Source: an uncultured Acidobacteriota bacterium
Lineage (GTDB): Bacteria; Acidobacteriota; Polarisedimenticolia; J045
NCBI GenBank assembly: GCA_963702425.1
Contig: CAVPCQ010000029.1
Location: forward strand, 20,593-84,592
Length of the DNA stretch: 64,000 nucleotides
Reading direction: 5' to 3'
Part shown: in pieces, positions 17,804 to 62,742 of the stretch
Position numbering within the stretch: position 1 is the first letter of the stretch
Layout of the letters: each line of letters begins with the position of its first letter
Notes under the pieces: generated by a model
What the model was told of the DNA's origin: nothing
Databases searched by the model: none
The model's input: only the letters and a program-made list of their open reading frames with translations
Position numbers and translations under genes: made by a program

Positions 17804-19417
17804 CTAGGGGCAGGTGGCCGGCGACAGCTGGCGCTGCGGGCCGCCGGTCGCGGTCAGGTCGCCCGCGGCGTTCCGTCCGATCACGAGGTAGAACAGGGCC
17901 GCCCCGGCCGAGGGCTTGACCGTATCGCCCCCGGTCCAGCGGGGCGTCGTGCTCTTGAAGATGCAGGTGTACTGCCCGGTCGCCTGGCCGTTGCGGTAGA
18001 CCCGGTACTCGGCCACGGGGACCTGCGCGCTGGAGAGCAGGTTCTCCCAGGTCCACTCCGTCCTCTGGAGCAGGAACATGTCGGCCGCACCCTTGCCGGA
18101 AACCTCCATCGCCGTGAAGGGCGGCACGATGACCCGGACCGAGCCGCCCTGGTCCACGATGTAGATCTCCTTCTGCGCGTCCTGGCCGAAGCTCGACAGG
18201 CTGCCGGGAAGCAGTCCCTGCGGGTCGAGCTGCGCGGTGCGGTCCTGCTGATCGGTGACCACCCCGCCGCTGATCCGGAACGAGCGGACGAACCCCGCGC
18301 AGTAGTCCCCGTAGAAATAGGTCCCGCGCAGGCTCGGCATCCGGCAGCCGCGGTAGACGAAGCCGCCGGTGATCGAACAGGCCCCGCCGGTATGGCCGTA
18401 CTCGAGGACGGGCCTGGTCATCGACGCGTCGTTGCACTTCGGAGTGCAGGGGGTGGTGTCGACCGGCGGCGTGCAGCTCGTGCTGGAGGGGTTGTAGCAC
18501 TTCGTCGCCTCCATCTGCCGCCAGCCGTAGTTGCGCCCACTCGCCGTCGCGGCGGAGACCCAGTTGACCTCCTCCCAGCAGTTCTGCCCGACATCGGCGA
18601 TGTACCAGTCACCGGTCGCGGGGTCGATGCTGCCGCGCCACGGGTTGCGCAGTCCGAAGGCCCAGATCTCCTCGCAGACGCTCGACTGTCCGACCAGCGG
18701 GTTGGTCGACGGGATGCGGTAGTTCGCCCCCGACGCGCCGCAGTCCGGAGCCCGTGAAGCGGGGTCGACGCCGAGCACGTCGAGGCGCAGCGCCTTGCCG
18801 AGCAGCACGTTCCTGTTCTGGCCGTTGCCGCAGGTGCCGCCGGTGCTGTCGCCGCCGCCGCCGCCGTCCCCGGTGAAGACGTAGAGGAAGCCGTCGTTGC
18901 CGAAGGTGAGGTAGCCGCCATTGTGGTTGTCCGACGGCTGGGAGAAGCGGAGGATCCGCAGCTCGCTGGCCGCGTCGGCGACGTCGGGGTTGGCGCTCAC
19001 GCGGTAGCGCGCGACGACTGTCCAGGCGTTGTTCCCCGCGTCGACCTCGGTGTAGTTCACGAAGAAGTAGCCCGAGGTCGCGTAGTCCGGCGCGAAGGCG
19101 AGTCCGAGCAGGCCCATCTCGTTGCCGCGCGTACTGACCTTCGTGCGCAGGTCGAGGAACGTCGTCCAGGTGGCGGTCGCGGTGCCGCGCTTGTGCAGGC
19201 GGATGTAGCCGTCCTGCTCGACGATGAGCTGCCGAGTGTTGTCAGCCGGCGGCGTGACGAGCAGCAACGGACGATTGACGAAGCCGGTCGCGATCGCGAC
19301 CGAGCGCAGGCTCGTCGTGTCCACCGGGGAGATGCCGAGGCAGGGATCGGTTTGAGCGAGGGCGTTTGCCGACCACGCGCAGAGCGCGAGGGCTGCGAGT
19401 CGGGGGCGGACCGTCAT
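17804..19417 (-). CDS. Secreted PQQ-dependent sugar (glucose/sorbosone) dehydrogenase with extra C-terminal domain
   Basis: Signal peptide; EMGLLGLAFAP, NHNGG, GLRNPWR, SITGGFVYRG, SSFGQD motifs; C-terminal ~100 aa ending CP. Confidence 0.9.
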   Translation of the reverse strand: MTVRPRLAALALCAWSANALAQTDPCLGISPVDTTSLRSVAIATGFVNRPLLLVTPPADNTRQLIVEQDGYIRLHKRGTATATWTTFLDLRTKVSTRGNEMGLLGLAFAPDYATSGYFFVNYTEVDAGNNAWTVVARYRVSANPDVADAASELRILRFSQPSDNHNGGYLTFGNDGFLYVFTGDGGGGGDSTGGTCGNGQNRNVLLGKALRLDVLGVDPASRAPDCGASGANYRIPSTNPLVGQSSVCEEIWAFGLRNPWRGSIDPATGDWYIADVGQNCWEEVNWVSAATASGRNYGWRQMEATKCYNPSSTSCTPPVDTTPCTPKCNDASMTRPVLEYGHTGGACSITGGFVYRGCRMPSLRGTYFYGDYCAGFVRSFRISGGVVTDQQDRTAQLDPQGLLPGSLSSFGQDAQKEIYIVDQGGSVRVIVPPFTAMEVSGKGAADMFLLQRTEWTWENLLSSAQVPVAEYRVYRNGQATGQYTCIFKSTTPRWTGGDTVKPSAGAALFYLVIGRNAAGDLTATGGPQRQLSPATCP

Positions 19418-19566
19418 GGCTGTTCCTCGTCGTGGAGCGTGGGCCCGCCACATCCGCGGGCGCTGCTGGTCGGGCGCTGCATGGACGAACGGTGTACCGC
19501 GCAAACCGTGGAATCCGCAAGAAACAACCCCGTTAACAGGCGTCCTCAGCCAACCTCGGGGGCGCC

Positions 19567-52082: not shown

Positions 52083-53345
52083 ATGAGCCCCCCGAACAAG
52101 ACCGGCGGCCGGCCGCCGCGCCGTCCGACCGGCGGGCCCGGCGGCGGGCCGCGGAAGAAGTCCGGACCGGGCGGGCCGAAGCGGCCGGGCGGGCCGGGCG
52201 GGCCGGGTGGGCCGAAGCGTCCGTGGAAGCCGGATGGTCCGAAGCGGCCGGGCGGGCCGGGCGGGCCGAGGAAGCCTTGGGAGCCGGGAAGTCCGAAGCG
52301 GCCGAGCGGACCGGGCGGTCCGGGCGGTCCGAAGAAGCCGTGGGAGCCGGGGGGGCCGAAGCGGCCGAGCAGGCCGAGCGGTCCCAAGAAGCCGTGGGAG
52401 CCGGGCGGTCCGAAGCGGCCGAGCGGTCCGGGCGGCCCGAAGCGGCCGAGCGGACCGGCCGGTCCGAAAAAGCCTTGGGAGCCGGGCGGTCCGAAGCGGC
52501 CGAGCGGACCGAAGCGGCCCGGCGCCCCCGGCCCTCGCCCCGGCGCGCCGGGACGCCCGCCCCGTCCCGGGGCAGGCCCCAGCCGGTCGACCGGTCCGGC
52601 CAGGATCCAGCGCCGGAAACTCGCCCCGGGGATCGCTCCGCCGCGGCCCCGGCCCCGCCCGCGGGTCGCAGAGGAACCCCAGGCGGTCCGTCCGGTCAGC
52701 CCGCGGCGCGTCAATCCGAACCGTCCGGCGCTCATCGTCGCCTCCCGGAACCCCGGGAAGGTGGCCGAGATGGCGGCAATCCTCGGCCAGACCGGGATCC
52801 AGGTCGTCGGGCCCGAGGTCCTGAACAAGCTCCCGGCCCCGCACGAGGACGGCGCCACCTTCGTCGCCAACGCGCGCAAGAAGGCGATCCACTACAGCCG
52901 CTACGTGCTCTTCCCGGTGATCGCCGACGACAGCGGGCTGTGCGTCGACGCGCTGGACGGGCAGCCGGGGGTGCGATCGGCCCGGCTCGGGGGGCCTGCA
53001 GCGACCGATGGTGACCGCATTCGATTGGTGCTGCGCAAGCTCGAGGGCGTGCCGTGGGAGGCGCGCACGGCGCGCTTCGTCTGCGTGCTCGCCGTGGCGC
53101 TGCGGGGCGACGTGCTGGCGACGTTCGAAGGCGAGGTGGAGGGGGTGATCGACTTCGAGCCGAAGGGATCGGGCGGCTTCGGCTACGATCCCGTCTTCTA
53201 TTACCCGCCCGCCGAAAAGACTTTTGCCGAATTGGACGCCGGGGAGAAAGAGCACGTTTCGCACCGCGGACAGGCCCTTGCGCGGGCCGTTGGCTGGCTG
53301 GCCGAGAACCTGCGCGGGGCTCCGGAGGAGCTTCCGGAATCGTGA
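52083..53345 (+). CDS. rdgB: RdgB/HAM1 non-canonical purine NTP pyrophosphatase with ~215 aa N-terminal low-complexity extension
   Basis: [35 protein letters not shown]; directly after rph. Confidence 0.92.
52134..52520 (+). repeat. Degenerate coding tandem repeats ([15 protein letters not shown] units)
   Basis: Recurring CCGAAGCGGCCG and AAGCCNTGGGAGCCGGG blocks; five PW-containing units. Confidence 0.85.
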
Positions 53346-53786: not shown

Positions 53787-53862
53787 TCCGGGGTAGCTCA
53801 GCCGGTAGAGCAGCTGGCTGTTAACCAGCGGGTCGGGGGTTCGAGTCCCTCCCCCGGAGCCA
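53787..53862 (+). tRNA. tRNA-Asn(GTT)
   Basis: TCCGGGG..TAGCTCAG..GCTGG-CTGTTAA-CCAGC..GGTTCGAGTCC..CCCCGGAGCCA. Confidence 0.96.
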
Positions 53863-54294
53863 ATCCTCCACTTTTCGAACTTCCGGCGGGGCGGTTAACG
53901 GGGAAGGTGTGTTCGGGGGGCGGCCGGGGGGCCGGAGAGGCGCGAGGGGGCGCGGGGAGGCGGGCGCCGGTCGGCGGGCGACGGCTCTCTGCGGGCTGCC
54001 TGGACGCGAGGCCGGCTGAGGCTCCTGTCGGCGCCGGGGCTGGAGCGCTCTCTTCCTCTCTGCGATAGTCGAGAGAGCCGTGCACCGGCGCATCGCCCGT
54101 TTCCGCGTCCTCGCGGGTTGCGAGGCGAGAGCCCACCCGGGAATGCGCATCGCCGTGAAGCGGGGACCTCGCCGAATCATTGAAAGACGGCATGGAGACC
54201 ACCACCACGCTTGGCTTCCCAACCGTGGCAGGCGTGCTACTCCACGTCTTGACCCCGCTCACCAACAAAGGCCCACGCCGCCAGCCGGAGTGAC

Positions 54295-55962
54295 CTAAGG
54301 ACACACATTCATTCTGGGCCGCGGAGTTCTCGCCGTTCCTGCGCCGCCGCACCGTTCCCGCGGACTCACCGACTCACCAAGGGTGCTCTCTCCACTCGCA
54401 CTCCTTGCCGATACGAGATAGTAGAAGCCGACAGCCGGACGCTCATCGTCCTCTGCACTCGGTGTACTTAGCGCGGCATACAGACAGTCGTGGTCGTACT
54501 GCCACGGACCGCCTGTCAGCGTCCCGCGGTAGAGAGAATAGGCATTCGTGATCCGCGACCTAGCCCATACAAGGCCGGAAGGGCTTGCAAAGCGCAGGTT
54601 CTGGATCTCATAGGGAACCCAGTCACAGGCACCCGGCCCGCCGTGCGCTCCCATATCTGAACGGACGAGTCCTCGCGACGGCGGGAAGCATGCATCGTCC
54701 CGCGTCGGATCCGGGTTCCCGGTGTCGATGCATGGAGATCCCGCGACGATCACAATGTCGGTCGGATCACACCCGACACCGGAGAAGACGGGGTTGAAGC
54801 TGATGTTCCCCTCTCCTTGGAACCCTCCCTGAATATCCGAATAGACGATCGAGGGCGAGCCTTCCACTTGCAAGCCGTCGGCGTTGTTGAAAAAGACGAT
54901 CGAGTCCTCGATGCTCATGCTGGCGCCGGTGACGAGCTTCACAGCCGTGCCGATCGGGTTCCGAGCGATGGTGCAGTTGTGCAATGAGGCGGAACCGGCG
55001 TTGAGGAAAAGGCCGGCGCCACCGTTGTAGGCCCCTGCCGTCACATTGCAGGAGAAGACGGTGTTGCTAAGCGTTACGCTGCCAGCATATACGTAGAGCG
55101 CGGCTCCATGGCTCGAAGCGCTGCTACAAGCCTGCCAAGCATCCGTCTTGTTCTTGGTGAAGACGCTGTTCCGAACGCTCATAGCGCCATTCCCATCAAA
55201 GTAAACGGCTCCGCCTCTTGCGGATGAATAACTGTAGTCGACGCACCAGGCATAGCTGACGTTGCCATCGAATCGGGTGTTCGAGATGGCCAGATCTCCG
55301 GCTTCAATCCAGATGGCGCCACCGCGAGAACTGTCCGTCCGTCCGGGATTGCTCGTGGAGTTCTCGACAAAGCTAGAGCCACTGATCCGAAGAGTGCGTC
55401 CGGGAGCAAGCCGAGCGTGCAGCGCGCCTCCACCCTCGCGGGCGGTGTTTCCGTCGAACACGCAGCCGTTGAGGTCGAGATCGCTGTCGAGGAGTGTGGC
55501 GTCGATCGCCCCTCCCGTTGTCGGCGAACTGTTGTGACGGAAGACTACCGATTCCAGCACGGGTGGGCTGGCCGATGTCAGCGACATTCCGCCACTGTCG
55601 GAGTCCTCGATGATGCAGTGTCGAAACGAAGAACCTGGCGGCGTATACTGAAATCGGATCCCCGCCCAGCATGTCCCCGGCGTTCTGACGCCGAATCGGA
55701 TCGGACTCGTCACGGTGCCATCAGCAGCAATGGTCGACAAGACTTCGATCTCATGATGGCCGTCGGCGAGCACTTCGACTCCCGGGTCGATTGTCAGAAG
55801 GCTCACCTGGATCGAGCCCGTGAGGCAGTACGGCGAGTTCTCGACTGTCCAGTGCTCTTCCTCGACTAGTCCAGCCGAAACGAAGGTCCTGCAGTCTGAG
55901 GACTGACTTGCGAACGCAACGGTCGATCCGAATGCAAGAGTGAGTACGAGCAGATGCCTCAT
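54295..55962 (-). CDS. Secreted right-handed beta-helix (pectin-lyase/PMP-like repeat) protein with C-terminal CP-ending domain
   Basis: Signal peptide; repeated F..N...GGA[ILV] motifs; SPCIDTG..DMGAHGG; C-terminal YYLVSAR..GE..LG..CP. Confidence 0.8.
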   Translation of the reverse strand: MRHLLVLTLAFGSTVAFASQSSDCRTFVSAGLVEEEHWTVENSPYCLTGSIQVSLLTIDPGVEVLADGHHEIEVLSTIAADGTVTSPIRFGVRTPGTCWAGIRFQYTPPGSSFRHCIIEDSDSGGMSLTSASPPVLESVVFRHNSSPTTGGAIDATLLDSDLDLNGCVFDGNTAREGGGALHARLAPGRTLRISGSSFVENSTSNPGRTDSSRGGAIWIEAGDLAISNTRFDGNVSYAWCVDYSYSSARGGAVYFDGNGAMSVRNSVFTKNKTDAWQACSSASSHGAALYVYAGSVTLSNTVFSCNVTAGAYNGGAGLFLNAGSASLHNCTIARNPIGTAVKLVTGASMSIEDSIVFFNNADGLQVEGSPSIVYSDIQGGFQGEGNISFNPVFSGVGCDPTDIVIVAGSPCIDTGNPDPTRDDACFPPSRGLVRSDMGAHGGPGACDWVPYEIQNLRFASPSGLVWARSRITNAYSLYRGTLTGGPWQYDHDCLYAALSTPSAEDDERPAVGFYYLVSARSASGESTLGESVSPRERCGGAGTARTPRPRMNVCP

Positions 55963-55986
55963 CGCTACGCCTCTCCCGCGATCACG

Positions 55987-58013
55987 CTACGGACATGGCT
56001 GGCCATTCTCTCGGACTGTCCCACTCGAATCGCTGCCCAACGGGCCCTCGCCGAGAGCGTTCTTGGCGGTGACCAGGTAGTAGGAGGCACTCCCGGCCGC
56101 CGGGCGCTCAACGTCCTCTGCAAGCGGCGCAGGAACTCCGGGCTGAATACACAGCGGCGGGGCCCCGGCAGCGAGCGTCCCAGCATCTCCGCGATAGAGG
56201 TTGAAGACCTCGGCATTACTTCGTCGCGGCTTCCCAAGAAAGAAGGTCCGTGGACTCGAAGGTCAGCGGCACCGCCGCACCAGGAGGCGAGACTTCCTTC
56301 GGGGCGGATGTCGCAGACTGTCGAGTAGGAGCTACCGTAGCTCGTGAAGCTGCCAAGGGAAGACTGCGAGCCGCCGACGACACGCACCTCAACCTCCTGC
56401 TGGACATTCACGCTCGACGGAGAATCGACTACCATGGGAAGCACACCACTGCCGGCGCAGTTTCCTGCGACGAGACCCGTCTCGGTGGCCTTCATGACCC
56501 ATGCATCCGCCGTCACAGACCCGAATGACTTCGCGTACCCGGCAAGGACCAGGGCACCATCAGCAGAGGTGATCACCGCGCTGAATCGATCGGCGTTGGC
56601 ACCACCATAGTGTCGTGCCCAAGCGAGGTGCCCCATGTCGTCGATCTTGACGAGCATTCCGTCGTAGTTGCCCGCCGTCGCTGAGTCGCTATAACCCGCA
56701 ATCGCACAGCCACCGTCCGCCGTCGCCGTTGCACTCAAGGCACGGTCATCACCCGGTCCGACGAGCGCGATTTCCCATTGCGTCACGCCCTGATCGCTGA
56801 GTTTGACGACCCAGATGTCCCCGAAGGCAGGAGGCTCGTCCACCGTCGTAGACCCAATGACCAACGTGCTTCCATCGCGGAATGGAACAAGAGCGCGAGC
56901 CTGGTCATCTCCTGCGCGGCCGATCGTCCGAATCCACACTCGATTGCCCTGCGAGTCGAGGCGCGCGACGAGAGCGTCCTTTCCTCCCTCTCCCCAGGTG
57001 GTCGTGTATCCTGCAAGAATAGTTCCGTCATCTGCGGTCGCCGCTACTGCATAGAACTCTTCGTCCCCTGGCCCCCCGACTGCGCGTTGCCATTCGATGC
57101 TCGCGTCCGTCGACAAGCGATAGACCCACGCGTCGACTCCGCCACTGCTCTCGCTTGTCGACGATCCTGCAATCGTAAAGTCGCCGCTGCTGGTGACGAC
57201 GATGGCATATGAGTAGTCGTCTCCGGGTCCGCCGAGAGTCCTCTGCCAACGCATGGGTCCGGTCACTTCGCGATTGAAGACAAACGAGTCGTACCCGCTG
57301 CCCCAGTAGTCCGTTCCACCTACCGCCACGTGTCCGCCCTGGGTGTCGAGCGCAAGGGCGTGAGGGATGTTGTTGGCGAATAGTCCAGTCCCGTAGGGCT
57401 GCTGGCCTGACCCCTCCGGGGAGAACGAGGGAAACCAGAAGTCGGTCTTCGTCGACCGTACGTACCGGCCGACAGTGAGGAAATCTCCATCTCGCTCCTG
57501 CACAAGCGCGACGGCGTCCTCCCACGGGCTTTCGCCCGCGGTTCGGACCCAGAGGCTGCATGCTGAAATGTCGCCGCTGAGCCGGAGGTCATACTCGCGT
57601 CGCGAGCCGACCGAAGCATCGGCTTGGCGAACGCGCACGTGATGCGTCCCGGTCTGCGTTGCGGTCCAGGTCAGACGAGATGCAAAGAAACCGCCACCAT
57701 CGTCGTCAGAGGCCAGCAATTGGGTGGCACTAGGGTTGTACAGGTCGAGAATCGTGTCAGCGAGATCGCCAAGGTTCGCTGTCTCAATCAAATAGGTGCG
57801 CCCTGCGCACGCCGGGAAGCCGACCCAGTCATCGGTGTCATCGCAGAAGTTCCGCGACTGCACCTCCCCGTTTCGGATGAGATGCGGGGTAGAGAACGGC
57901 AGATCGTCAGGCTCGTACTGATCGGGGCAGGCGAAAGGCTGCTCGGGACCGCCGGCGAAGGTCACGGGCGACAAGATGAGGAGCGCGACGAGGACTACGA
58001 CCGATCGGCGCAT
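55987..58013 (-). CDS. Secreted protein: PPC-like domain + beta-propeller-like repeats + C-terminal CP-ending domain (two frameshifts near 56300 and 56220)
   Basis: Signal peptide; DQYEPDD, DDDGGG..SRL; repeats W.R..GG.GDD; alternate frames give EVSPPGAAVPL..LSWE and FNLYRG..YYLVTAKNALGEGPLG..QPCP-TAG. Confidence 0.75.
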
Positions 58014-58300
58014 GACGGCATCCCTTGGGCGCGGAGTGTAAGCGGGATGCGAGCTTACGAGAGATGGCCGGGTCAGTAAGATGCGCCCCCCGCCGGGTTG
58101 GAGGCGGCCCGGTCGGCCGCCGCTAGCCGGGGCGCGGGAACATCATCGCCTGTCGCGACCGGGGTATCCCCGCGACCAGGGCAGTTCATCGAAGCCGGGT
58201 TGTGCGGGTTGGAGTTGTGCACTTCGGCGACCGACCGCTCTTCCCCGTGCGAACGAGTCAGCGAGCATCGGCTCGTTGCTCAGCTGCCTTGTCGCGCGAC

Positions 58301-60212
58301 CTAGCAGCGAGGCGGACCAGGCCAGCGCCGGGTGATGAAGCCATCGCCGTCTTGGGACGCCTCGGGACCACCCTCAAGGAAGGAGCTGTGAGTACGGCGG
58401 GCTCCGACGTTCGTTCGGCCTGACCTTGCCGTCGGCCCTCGCCGGCGCCTTGACCAGGTGCAGAAGAGGTACTTCTTCGCTCTAGTCATGGCCACATAGA
58501 GCAGTCTTCGTTCTTCGTCTAGCGCCCCATCTGGCCGCGGCACTAGTCCTTCCTCGCATGCGGCGACGCCGTCGCCTGGACGGTAAGACCCTTCGAGCCA
58601 CTCATCGACATGAAGCGGACGCCATTGGCGGGCCGGGGCTCGGTCGGTCCCGAGCGGTGCGATCTGGCTCAGGAACCGGCCGAGGTCCTCGGCGTCGCCG
58701 ATCTCGTCAAGCTCGCGAATGACCTCGCTGAGTTCAGCGCTGAAAGGAGGCAGGACGCGGCCGTCGGCTAGGCCGGTCAGCCAGTGGCCCCAACCCTCTT
58801 CTGGTTCGGCCAGCGGCGGTTCGTGGGCGTCGAGCCATGCCATGACGGTCTGCATGATGGCCACGGCCTTCTTGGACGACCTGGGCCCGTCGGGGAAGCG
58901 CGCCTCGTATGCCGCGAGAAGTGCCTTGCCGAAGCCCATCCTGGCGATGCGCGCGCGGTCGTAGATGTAGGACTCAATTGACCGCCCGACACCATCCGTG
59001 AGCGCAAAGAGCGTGGCCCACGCGAGAGATCCTCGGGGTCGACCATGAGGCGGAAGATCGCAATGGCCCGCCGGTTGTCCGGTTCTTCCAGAGCGCGCCG
59101 CACAACGTCGGGGTCCGACACTGCAATGCCTGCTTGATGCAGCCGCTCCTTGATCGGGCCACTGAACAACCCAGATCGGTCGCCTCGGAACAGGACCAGG
59201 ATCTCGCTCGGTGGCACCGCTTCGTCCCGAATGAGGTGCTGGACTAGCCTGGCGACGCCGACCGACTCGGTGTCGTTATCAGGGAATGTGAACAGTGCGA
59301 CCTCACCCTCAGGCGATCTTCTGCGGCGGTAAGTGGGTTGCGGTCTGCGGACGATGCGGATCCCCTTGGATCACGAAGCGCGCCCAGTTGACGATGCGCC
59401 GACCGCAACGCTGTGTGATTGTCAATCCATACGCAGCGCTGTTCGGGTAGTCCTGACCGAATCGGCGGATACCCTCGAGGCGCTGCCTTGCGGAACGAGT
59501 AGATCGACTGATCGTCGTCGCCGGCCGCTAGGATCGAGCAGCCCCTCTTGCCTAGGCTGTGCAGCGCCTCGATGTCGCACGCGTTCAGATCTGTATTCGT
59601 CCACGATCAGCAGGTCGTAATCGATCCCTGTCAGGTCGGGATGATCGCGAAGTGCTTGGCGGAGCAGGTCGGGGAGTTCGGCCAGGAGCGTGTAGCCATA
59701 CACATACCGGTGCTCGCGCCAGACTCCTAGGAACCTGGCACGCACATCGGCTCCCATCTCAGGATCCTCTTCCGGTCGCAAGGACTGCCAGTTGCCTTCC
59801 ATTTCGCGCATCAAGGTCTTGATCATCCTGAGGCCGACACCCATGCGAGCTGCCAAGGCCTTTCGCACGATGACATCAGTCTCCCACTCGTCGGCGAGCC
59901 GGAGAGGTAGCGGAAACGAGGCGCTGCCAGGGTTCTTTAGCAGGACTGAAATGGCGAAGGAGTGAATCGTGCTCGGTCGCTCCGCCGCGGCCTGTGGATG
60001 CTCCGTGACACCTTCCCCGACAGCTCGCTGGTTGCGGCGCGAGTGAAGGTCAGCAGCCTGATCCTCGGTGTGGGGTTCCTCCGCGCCAACCGTTCGATCA
60101 GCGCCACGACCGTTGCGCTCTTTCCGGTGCCGGGGCCTGCAAGGATCACTCCGTGCCGGTCCGGTCCGTGCTTAAGGATCTCGTCCTGCTCTGGGGTGGG
60201 CGCGTAGGTCAC
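58301..60212 (-). pseudogene. UvrD/Rep-like SF1A helicase, split by several frameshifts
   Basis: AGPGTGKS (Walker A), LTFTRAA, LLIVDEY (Walker B), EERRLLYVAMTRAK (motif VI) in correct order over four ORFs. Confidence 0.8.
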
Positions 60213-60900
60213 TGGGTCACCTCAGCGGTCGATTCGCGGACCCGCGGGCAGTGACTATACACAAAGCGAGCATCCGGCCGGGAGCGCGTGGCTGAACGTC
60301 GCGGTCGTCACGCGCCCTCAGGCTCAGCGGGGCTGTGTTAGACCACCATCTTGGGTCGCGGCGAGTGGCCGTGTTCGGACTTGCACACAGGCCTTCGGCC
60401 CGCCGCGGGTGGACGAGGTGTTCGTCCGAGTCGCCAACGGGGCGCGAGCGATGCATGCGGTCGGTTGCCGCGATCCGGACCGGGCCAGGGAGAGGGCATG
60501 GAGAATCGCCGAGCGGGCGCATCGGGGCCAACGCGGAGGGAGAGCACGCTCGTCGCGAGCGTCGTTGGATAGCAGGTGCCCCCGCAGGGACTCGGCTTCG
60601 ACCTCCCGAGAGGTACGAGAGTCCCTGCAAGATAAGGACATGCTCCACGGGACGCGCTGCGGAAAAGTGGTGGCACAAGACACGCGATGGCGGTGCGGGC
60701 GAACATGAGCGGCGACGGCTGAATCGCAATCGTTGCTGAGCAGGAGGTTGGTCAGAGGGGCTTGTGGAACGCTACTGAGCCGGAGGGGTGCCATGCGAGC
60801 GGCTTCTGCACCGTCAGGATTCCCACACTCCCGAGTGCCGCCGGGCTCGTGCTGCAAGTCGATACGGGACTGTGGCAAGCTACAGCGTCTCGCCGGCCGC

Positions 60901-61354
60901 GTGCTATTGACATGCGCACTCGCGTCGTGTGGGGCGGCCTCTCAGGGAACGCCGCCCACAATGCCGGAACCTCCCAGCAGAGACCTCAAAGCGAGTTTTC
61001 CCGATTGCCCTGAAGGCCAGGACGCAGTGAACCTGCAAGTGCTTAAGCGATGCAAGGGAGACCTTGAGGCATATCGTATCGGGGTACTCGAGCCATACAA
61101 TGCCTCTGTGGCCGTGTACAGCCAAAGACTTACAGAGCTTGATGCGAGGCTGCGTACCGATGCCGGCGCTGGCAGAAGTTCTTGGGAATCCTATGAAGTA
61201 TGGAAAAGAAGATTCAGGCTGCGCTTGACAGCGCCAAGATAGGGGGCCAGTTGATGGCCCCGTACCAGGAGTGGTTTGAGAGGTACAGGCAGCGAATCAG
61301 ATTCGTGATTGGCGAGATTAATCTTTGCGAAACAGATCCGAGGCGGCCATGCTA
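60901..61354 (+). CDS. Hypothetical lipoprotein-like protein (probable frameshift near 61215)
   Basis: VLLTCALASC lipobox-like start in ORF 60733..61242; plausible continuation in another frame; no family recognised. Confidence 0.3.
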
Positions 61355-61722
61355 GAGCAAGCGGTCATCGGTTCCTTGGCGGACTCGAAAGTATTCTCTG
61401 CGATTCCGCGTGCGGTGGAGGCTGCGGCGCTCGCTTTGGTGTTCTTGGTTCCGCCGCTCACGTTCCTGTTTGTGTCAACACTGGGAGCGGCTTTCCTTGG
61501 CGGCAGGAATGTTCCAGATATTCCCCGCAGCAGAGTGTCAGGTTACCTACTCGGGTTTGCCGTATTCGGCTCGCGTTTGGGTCGTTGGCCGGGTGGCCCG
61601 CGGACCCTCTCCTAGAAGCTCCTCTCTCCGTTCCTCGCGTTGTTTACGGCGTTCACCACGTATCTGACGAACAAGGAGACGCCACGGGAGCTGAAGGTAT
61701 TGGTTCCCTATTCAGTTGTTGA
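61349..61722 (+). CDS. Hypothetical membrane protein, probably frameshifted
   Basis: Hydrophobic segments in ORF 61325..61615; boundaries uncertain. Confidence 0.25.
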
Positions 61723-62159
61723 TTTCCCCTCCTATGCGTGCTATTTACGTTCTTTTACATGCGCTTCTACTGAGCAGGTGTGGTAGGCCACGCGCGCCGG
61801 GGGCAGACCAGGTCCGTTGATGCAGCAGGTGTGTAGACGGCCACCGATCTTGCACCGCGCCTGGGCGCGGCTTTCGGCATCGAGAGGGTTGTTGCAACGC
61901 TCACTCAGTGCGGCGAAGTCGGACCGAGCGTGAGCACCGGGACGGAGATTGCTCGTCGAGCGACCGGCTGGGCGGCACCAGCGCAGACGGCGGCCTCGGC
62001 CGAAACAGAACTGCACATGTCGCCGTCACGCCGCGCGAGTCAGCGCGACGACGGGAAGGTGCGCTCGAGCTCCGAGGAATCGAACCACTTGCGTACAGCT
62101 CAGGCCCAGCTGACCACGGAGCCCGGCCCCGGCACTTCGAGAGGCCGAGTGAGTGCCTA

Positions 62160-62742
62160 TCAGCAGTTGAGGGCCCTCACGCCGCGCTGGAGATCGTCGT
62201 CCGACGGGTGCGTATAGACGATCTCGTCAGGGGCGACGCATGCCGTGCGAAGCGCTGCGCGAGGAAGAGGTTGCGTGACGCGCGATAGATGCTCGTGACG
62301 GCGGTGTGTCGAAGCAGTGGAACGAGTAGTGTCGGTCGAAGCCCGCCACGGCCTGCCAGGGGAACCACGCTGTCTGGACCCGGCGTTGGCAATCCGGCGC
62401 CGAGATGGAAGCAGAACACCGGCGCGTCGGGCGCCAGGTTCTCGGTACGCTGGCGCTTGTGGGCCCAGAGCCGCCGCAGCTTCGGCAGGAGCTTCTCCGG
62501 CAGGAAGACATCGGCCGCCCGACGGCCCTTCGCAATAGCGGCGCGGACATGGATTCGGGGCCTCGGCTTGCCGTCCGGCGTAAAGACATCGCCCACATTC
62601 GAGGCCGACGATCTCGGCGAGGCGGAGACCGGTACCCAGCGCGATCGAGATGATGGCGTGGTCGCGGGGGTGGTCTCGCGTGGTCCGCAGGATGGCCTTC
62701 TGCTCGGCCGGCAGTCAGGGTCGGAGGGCAGAGGTAGGGCAT
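62160..62742 (-). pseudogene. Short tyrosine recombinase (catalytic domain only), frameshifted
   Basis: Across frames: RDHAII..GTGLRLAE, AKG, SFH.LRHT, AQRFARH, YTH: R-K-HxxR-H-Y catalytic set. Confidence 0.8.

Follow-up and report, generated by a model that had tools for sequence, protein, structure and literature searches.

In a 64,000-nucleotide stretch of DNA from an uncultured Acidobacteriota bacterium (Polarisedimenticolia, J045; assembly GCA_963702425.1, contig CAVPCQ010000029.1, positions 20,593 to 84,592 of the forward strand; hereafter the window), three genes on the reverse strand encode signal-peptide proteins that share a C-terminal domain ending in Cys-Pro directly before the stop codon. 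We refer to this domain as FN3-CP. Gene 1 (54295..55962, (-); stop codon 54295-54297) encodes 555 residues, comprising the signal peptide MRHLLVLTLAFGSTVAFA, a Chlam_PMP/right-handed β-helix core (Pfam scan: Beta_helix, 1.9e-15; Chlam_PMP, 8.2e-10) and an FN3-CP tail whose C-terminus reads ...YSLYRG...DHDC...FYYLVSARSASGESTLG...NVCP-stop. The domain itself (54298..54627, (-)) spans 110 residues, has a private insertion of about 20 residues ahead of the final Cys-Pro and gave FN3 structural matches with a Z-score of about 8. Gene 3 (17804..19504, (-)) encodes 566 residues, with a signal peptide, a pyrroloquinoline quinone (PQQ) glucose/sorbosone dehydrogenase (GSDH) core (Pfam GSDH, 4.5e-34) and a tail reading ...EYRVYRNG...YTC...LFYLVIGRNAAGD...ATCP-stop; its FN3-CP domain (17807..18097, (-)) was matched by a profile built from the three window tails with an E-value of 7e-42.

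Gene 2 is adjacent to gene 1 and is frameshifted in this assembly. Its main-frame open reading frame (55965..58013, (-)) encodes a signal peptide, a PPC-like region and an SBBP/delta-60-type propeller (NCBIfam delta-60 and SBBP matches, both below their cut-offs), and yields junk beyond about 56300. The opening strands of the FN3-CP domain were found in a second frame (56216..56407, (-); ...PPGAAVPLTFESTDLLSWEAATK-stop, ...VPLTFESTDLLSWEAATK-stop), and the remainder in a third (55987..56262, (-); ...NAEVFNLYRGDAG...PLC...YYLVTAKNALGEGPLG...QPCP-stop), which matched the three-tail profile with an E-value of 4.1e-33. Since the tail is split over two other frames, the two frameshifts are real in this assembly. 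The second frame change lies outside any homopolymer. The public metagenome contigs over gene 2 were short and of low depth, came from two of four runs and covered 56274-56624; in one related contig (163 nt, depth 3.5), 56300 is followed by two additional bases, with which the main frame would continue into the 56216..56407 frame. This gives a weak indication that the first break is strain-specific or an assembly error.

Both adjacent FN3-CP genes sit inside a stretch of lower G+C content that follows a tRNA-Asn gene (GTT; 53787-53862, (+)) and extends over about 8.5 kb (window 53787-62500), with 58-67% G+C compared with 71-79% upstream. The third-codon-position G+C content (GC3) of gene 1 is 0.68, against a genome-typical value of about 0.9. 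The stretch looks like an island inserted at the tRNA-Asn gene, and the frameshifted propeller gene may be decaying within it.

Upon pairwise comparison of the tails by BLASTP, tail 1 matched tail 2 with an E-value of 6e-12 and tail 3 with an E-value of 2e-4; the likeness of the three tails is real and lies far beyond chance. No Pfam or NCBIfam model matched any of them, even at E<=10, and a direct reading of the sequences revealed no hydrophobic helix in any tail. A preliminary description of this DNA, made from the letters alone, had pointed to a tail of about 90-100 residues shared by three signal-peptide proteins, including the propeller copy hidden by two frameshifts and the copy on the PQQ dehydrogenase at 17804, and had judged it not to be of the sortase type on the grounds that it lacks a transmembrane helix. 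All of these observations were confirmed at the places given there. The description had left open whether the domain was already catalogued, and it proved to be uncatalogued in both Pfam and NCBIfam.

To count the domain beyond the window, as the preliminary description had suggested, profiles were searched against the whole assembly (5.10 Mb, 42 contigs, 71% G+C, 91% completeness, 5.85% contamination). The profile from the three window tails found 73 places at E<=10. A second, non-iterated profile built from 22 diverse tails of this genome (profile A2), on which the headline counts are based, found 94 copies in 89 reading frames. The copy ended within 30 residues of the stop codon in 82 of the 94 cases and within 10 residues in 78, the exact Cys-Pro end was present in 64 of the 82 terminal copies, and 86 of the 89 carriers contained one copy only. 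FN3-CP is by far the commonest shared C-terminal feature of this genome. An iterated profile raised the count to 121 copies (97 terminal) in 108 frames; it had drifted to take in a shorter FN3 subtype ending ...C-G-Q-E-G-P, and hence the non-iterated profile was kept. This second C-terminal FN3-like subtype, seen by the iterated profile only, ends ...YF/YYxVRxVNxCGQEGP-stop, lacks the mid-domain Cys and often follows 'AENDETC.SGP.NGG'; examples are C18:179992-182304, C16:91828-96840, C16:98654-100624, C10:62123-68314 and C35:39117-42722. We also observed identical or nearly identical carriers on different contigs (C13:136-3489 and C14:5430-8783; C1:8061-8756 and C25:776-1471), which points to either a recent duplication or redundancy among the contigs of the bin. 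If the contigs are redundant, the copy numbers are slightly inflated, as 81 distinct tails are present among the 82 terminal ones.

The carriers have unrelated cores, all of extracytoplasmic types. From the 79 eligible carriers, 40 were selected evenly with respect to length, and a Pfam scan of these returned 47 different families, among them TSP_3 (6 carriers), BNR_2 (5), the MopE motif (3), FG-GAP and subtilase S8 with a P-domain, together with sortilin-type and PD40 propellers, M14, M4 and M23 peptidases, GDSL lipase, VWA, laminin-G and CBM96. A crude signal-peptide heuristic was positive in 59 of 86 carriers compared with 625 of 1,639 control frames (38%).

The domain is lineage-specific and is hugely expanded in the class near Ca. 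Polarisedimenticolaceae. Among the class genomes searched, this one included, matches at E<=1e-3 were present in 31 of 31, with 7-149 in each and best E-values reaching 1e-28. When 201 evenly sampled genomes of the phylum were searched at E<=1e-10, 33 were positive: this genome, the class's remaining 16 of 16 and 16 of 184 outside it, the latter clustering in a few families (f32, 8/14; f16, 2/2). These tallies include one unpublished genome (G030), and without it they become 30 of 30 and 32 of 200. The lineage-specific nature proposed in the preliminary description is thereby upheld. Among the 20 top matches from 10 other genomes, a set biased towards good matches, Cys-Pro followed by an immediate stop was found in 17.

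A global profile search of 1.84 billion representative proteins yielded 15,308 matches at E<=1e-3, 3,607 at <=1e-10 and 81 at <=1e-30. The top of the list was occupied mainly by giant proteins with only 13-25 bits per repeat, two of which were scanned and found to be Pfam fn3 arrays; true members scored 50-80 bits over the full profile and had the Cys-Pro end. One database match was labelled Verrucomicrobiae, and the few Verrucomicrobiota matches include P0173. In a less biased list selected by single-domain similarity, the domain was last and closed by Cys-Pro in 24 of 26 proteins, and the carriers comprised aminopeptidase N, multicopper oxidases, GH39, VCBS/FG-GAP proteins and NosD-like β-helices. 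Their source names were 'hypothetical protein' or described the core only. A protein-language-model atlas returned unnamed acidobacterial clusters at 0.95-0.96 and no named cluster above 0.85. Neither Pfam (2025 copy) nor NCBIfam 20.0 contains the domain, and no such domain was mentioned in the opening parts of abstracts on acidobacterial sorting signals, FN3 secretion and TSP3.

The A2 alignment, in which paralogues are 20-37% identical, revealed five invariant columns, namely a Trp, the mid-domain Cys, a Tyr, the final Cys and the final Pro, within the consensus pattern L.W....Y.vYRG....C....D...P..G..fYYLVrA.N..G.G.lG..S.G..R.....CP. Two AlphaFold2 models were obtained. The model of the gene 1 copy had a mean predicted local distance difference test score (pLDDT) of 75.5, with low confidence at residues 86-104, the private insertion. 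The model of a canonical copy, computed with 48 aligned paralogues, had a pLDDT of 89.9, a predicted template modelling score (pTM) of 0.80 and a value of 88 over the last ten residues. For each model, all 50 matches listed by VIA were FN3-type modules or FN3-containing proteins, with top matches of the second model at Z-scores of 8.6-9.0 and a root mean square deviation (rmsd) of 2.1-2.3 Å over 78-82 aligned residues. Foldseek matched 3mpc, an Fn3-like protein of C. thermocellum, with an E-value of 3.9e-4, and 3mpc and the FN3 of the CtXyl5A arabinoxylanase were the best bacterial structural matches. The structural alignments ended near residue 95 of 110, so that the Cys-Pro tail is an extra piece. 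At the sequence level, the A2 profile weakly matched 3mpc (E = 0.004) and 1k85, the FnIII domain of chitinase A1 (E = 0.02), in the Protein Data Bank. As judged from these models, FN3-CP is a divergent FN3 β-sandwich of about 85 residues with an extension of about 14 residues that ends in Cys-Pro, which agrees with the FN3-like domain anticipated in the preliminary description.

The cysteines of the domain occur together. The mid-domain Cys, located in the C' strand, was present in 88 of the 94 copies, and all 88 also had the late Cys (84 by script, four read from the tails); the six copies without the mid Cys were fragments or misalignments. In addition, a Cys was present within the last six residues of 82 of 82 terminal copies. 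From this co-occurrence, a disulfide most likely joins the C'-strand Cys to the final one, which would clamp the C-terminus onto the sandwich. The genome encodes two DsbA-type thioredoxins (PF13462), and VKOR was not found in it. One of the DsbA-type matches (C19:172452-172931) lies directly upstream of an FN3-CP carrier (C19:173196-176216). We also observed that in many carriers the domain is closely preceded by a half-MopE-like Cys motif, 'DC.D.d...w..PgEv', and that this motif goes with an extra Cys in an 'N.CG' FG loop (16 and 14 of the 94 copies in two columns); the pairing suggests a second, subtype-specific disulfide.

A genome of 71% G+C yields many spurious frames rich in Ala, Gly, Pro and Arg, and we considered whether the pattern might be an artefact of chance or composition. 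Among 12,038 frames of at least 200 residues, 86 end in Cys-Pro; 60 of these carry the domain, and the 26 without it are mostly junk-like. The statistics of the Cys-Pro end, the profile E-values down to 1e-28, the confident AlphaFold2 model, the conserved Cys, Trp and Tyr columns and the conservation in other genomes refute this explanation, to which we assign a negligible probability.

What remains is the role of the domain. One copy per protein, the last position, about a hundred unrelated cargoes, retention throughout the class and the positional analogy of the GSDH enzymes together form the pattern of a shared address or anchor module. The analogy comes from relatives of gene 3. In eight of nine acidobacterial loci (54-91% identity) the match extends through the last residue, 566, and a Bacteroidota GSDH homologue carries Por_Secre_tail at residues 398-470 of 472 (E = 4.6e-14), while a Phycisphaerales homologue ends in Dockerin_1. 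By this positional analogy, a sorting or anchoring role of FN3-CP is plausible.

We propose, with a probability of roughly 0.42, that FN3-CP is a lineage-specific common handle read by a shared partner that sets the fate of the cargo after Sec export. The carriers, about 90 per genome, are Sec-exported proteins with unrelated extracytoplasmic cores and FN3-CP nearly always last, and the bond between the last Cys and the invariant C'-strand Cys would hold the C-terminus on the domain. One shared partner would then recognise FN3-CP as a folded domain. This partner may be a polymer of the cell surface or a component that serves export or attachment at the outer membrane, and it would decide whether the cargo is released across the outer membrane or retained on the cell surface. 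The domain would thus act like the C-terminal domain (CTD) of the type IX secretion system (T9SS) or like a dockerin, while being a member of neither family. A further reading, which we regard as rather improbable, makes FN3-CP the label for cargo of an undescribed pathway of secretion across, or attachment to, the outer surface in Polarisedimenticolia-like Acidobacteriota, analogous in function to the T9SS of Bacteroidota and located at the outer membrane, or else a dedicated structural signal for the type II secretin of this lineage; in either case it would be carried by about 2% of the proteome. The genome encodes two secretins.

Several observations weigh against a handle read by a partner. 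Genuine sorting tags, for example T9SS CTDs and PEP-CTERM, stand strictly at the C-terminus. In this genome, 12 of the 94 copies are internal, and seven of the 12 run straight into Asp-rich D.D.DG..D..DNCP repeats. Among the best-scoring database representatives, 73 strong copies were found in 35 proteins and 48 of them were internal, a share that is biased as the list favours multi-copy proteins; these internal copies mostly end in ...CP (some in ...C) and are followed by Asp-rich repeats. Pfam TSP_3 (PF02412) was present in three scanned representatives (P0014, P0047 and P0072), and the architecture FN3-CP–TSP_3–FN3-CP occurs in many database proteins. In addition, the conserved positions are mainly core residues (W, Y, C, YLV, G, P), with no conserved surface patch demonstrated, extracellular enzymes of bacteria commonly contain FN3 modules as passive parts, and the signal-peptide heuristic used for the carriers is crude. 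Finally, no cognate machinery was identified; F1, the sole conserved neighbour family, failed the co-distribution comparison described below.

Internal copies close with the same Cys-Pro, and therefore Cys-Pro is a domain boundary and not a free-end motif. The many, mostly terminal copies throughout the genome and their frequent signal-peptide-like N-termini agree with the preliminary description. A TSP3-like motif was found by regular expression in 12 of 97 carriers, and TSP_3 is a frequent but not a constant neighbour of FN3-CP. As to the secretion or surface-attachment signal that the preliminary description inferred, a lineage-specific, mostly terminal domain on exported proteins is what we found; a sorting role goes beyond these data.

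The same observations bear on a passive structural cap, in which FN3-CP would be a spacer or stability module without a shared partner. The disulfide-clamped, Pro-ended terminus would guard against carboxypeptidases and unfolding, and the last position would have come about through module shuffling. Proteins with Pro at the C-terminus are resistant to many carboxypeptidases. Both the fold and the weak similarity at the profile level point to generic FN3, giant fn3 arrays are among the representative matches, conserved residues lie mainly in the core, internal copies keep the same Cys-Pro boundary and no machinery was found. The concern that the tail might simply belong to a generic FN3 family, which the preliminary description had itself raised, was half justified, with a weak but real similarity on the one side and no Pfam or NCBIfam match on the other. 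However, a passive cap leaves unexplained why about 90 unrelated proteins per genome have one copy (86/89), placed last (82 of 94 copies terminal), why the domain is retained in every genome of the class, and why a secretion or docking tag occupies the same place on the homologous enzyme in other phyla. We consider this explanation somewhat unlikely, although it is the strongest of the alternatives.

The carriers and structural matches also allow for substrate or matrix binding, in which FN3-CP would hold enzymes on a polymer (a polysaccharide, the extracellular polymeric substance (EPS) matrix or mineral-bound organic matter) in the manner of carbohydrate-binding modules (CBMs) and X-modules, with no role in secretion. 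The best bacterial structural matches, 3mpc and the CtXyl5A FN3, the match by sequence to the chitinase A1 FnIII domain, the many hydrolases among the carriers and the frequent association with Ca-binding TSP_3 repeats are consistent with such a function. However, oxidoreductases (GSDH, multicopper oxidases), propellers and β-helix adhesin-like proteins are carriers too and have no obvious common substrate, and among paralogues with 20-37% identity a single ligand site is not evident. Binding to a matrix appears rather unlikely to us.

For the partner required by a common handle, phylogenetic profiling for a cognate apparatus, as the preliminary description had recommended, was applied to one conserved neighbour, F1, and this candidate failed. 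Across 14 loci from several families, a small protein of about 190-220 residues, with a signal peptide, a 'SASFKL.E...GG' region of about 80 residues and FN3-CP, was called directly beside F1 in 8, and F1 itself occurs in 12. The gene pair is located at C21:60829-63618, C1:4331-10909 and C17:135357-139021 and at loci L111-L113 and L116-L119. F1 is a secreted family of 560-1300 residues that starts with 'INYQGVLRD' after the signal peptide, may contain a 'FVQNHP...GLRIGFE' block and ends in 'GDLLV.SP.PGHAM...VLVMLR'; tandem paralogues occur, and no Pfam match was obtained. A profile of its C-terminus found the family in 27 of 201 genomes of the phylum. F1 was rejected as general machinery, since 7 domain-bearing genomes of the same class (9 to at least 24 matches each) lack it and 10 genomes that lack the domain have it. 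Families of the phylum with only 1-7 FN3-CP copies also retain the gene pair, which may represent the ancestral carrier.

Elsewhere in the window, an open reading frame encoding 420 residues (52083-53345, (+)) begins with about 200 residues of basic Pro/Gly repeats (GPGGPKRP). Judged from a reading of the sequence alone, its second half looks like an RdgB/HAM1-type NTP pyrophosphatase.

Acidobacteriota are abundant in soils and sediments, and the way in which their many hydrolases and adhesins are exported and displayed is poorly known. One uncatalogued domain that closes about 90 exported proteins per genome across a class provides a ready marker of the exoproteome of uncultured bacteria, and FN3-CP is a family defined well enough for addition to Pfam or NCBIfam. 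It also offers a concrete handle for finding an export or anchoring partner. If FN3-CP is a true secretion tag, it would represent a new principle of cargo recognition within a major phylum; should it serve as a stability cap only, the annotation of thousands of 'hypothetical' C-termini would still be corrected.

To place FN3-CP among known systems, we compared it with the C-terminal modules and tags of other exported proteins. In environmental bacteria, the PEP-CTERM/exosortase, LPXTG/sortase and GlyGly-CTERM/rhombosortase systems likewise involve C-terminal regions that are paralogous among many exported proteins. Their tags, however, combine a short motif with a transmembrane helix and a basic tail, whereas FN3-CP is folded and soluble and ends ...G..R......CP. 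In the 91%-complete genome, neither exosortase (PF09721; the control matched in M. jannaschii) nor PEP-CTERM (PF07589; the control matched nowhere) gave a match. Dockerins resemble FN3-CP in being C-terminal modules of many secreted enzymes, and FN3-CP often stands beside Ca-binding, Asp-rich TSP_3 repeats; the Phycisphaerales GSDH homologue ends in Dockerin_1. The folds differ, as FN3-CP is a β-sandwich and the dockerin an EF-hand-like helix pair, and we know of no cohesin-like partner for FN3-CP.

The T9SS CTD (Por_Secre_tail, TIGR04183/PF18962) is likewise a β-sandwich of about 80-100 residues at the extreme C-terminus, is found within one lineage on dozens to more than 100 Sec-exported proteins with unrelated cores, and occupies the place of FN3-CP on the Bacteroidota GSDH homologue. 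In contrast, the tails do not match it at E<=10, it belongs to another phylum and FN3-CP also occurs internally. A direct link to the T9SS was not supported. SprA (TIGR04189), the component searched for, gave no match in the 91%-complete genome, which is a weak negative as the control genomes were also silent, and Por_Secre_tail gave one sub-cut-off match only (18.1 bits), located elsewhere than the tails.

Bacterial FN3 modules (Pfam fn3, PF00041; 3mpc and 1k85) have the same β-sandwich fold with the seven-strand FN3 topology, the same core pattern (L.W...Y.vYR...YYLV.A.N..G) and a weak profile similarity to FN3-CP. Nevertheless, no tail reaches Pfam fn3 at E<=10, and fn3 is not among the 25 most frequent of the 47 families on the 40 scanned carriers at 1e-5. 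Compared with these modules, FN3-CP adds the invariant C'-strand Cys and the 14-residue Cys-Pro extension, is almost without a G strand in both models, and nearly always forms the last domain, in one copy per protein, whereas most FN3 modules stand inside a protein or in arrays. The new part seems to be the FN3-CP family itself; its fold is ordinary, and lineage-specific C-terminal β-sandwich tags are already known from the T9SS.

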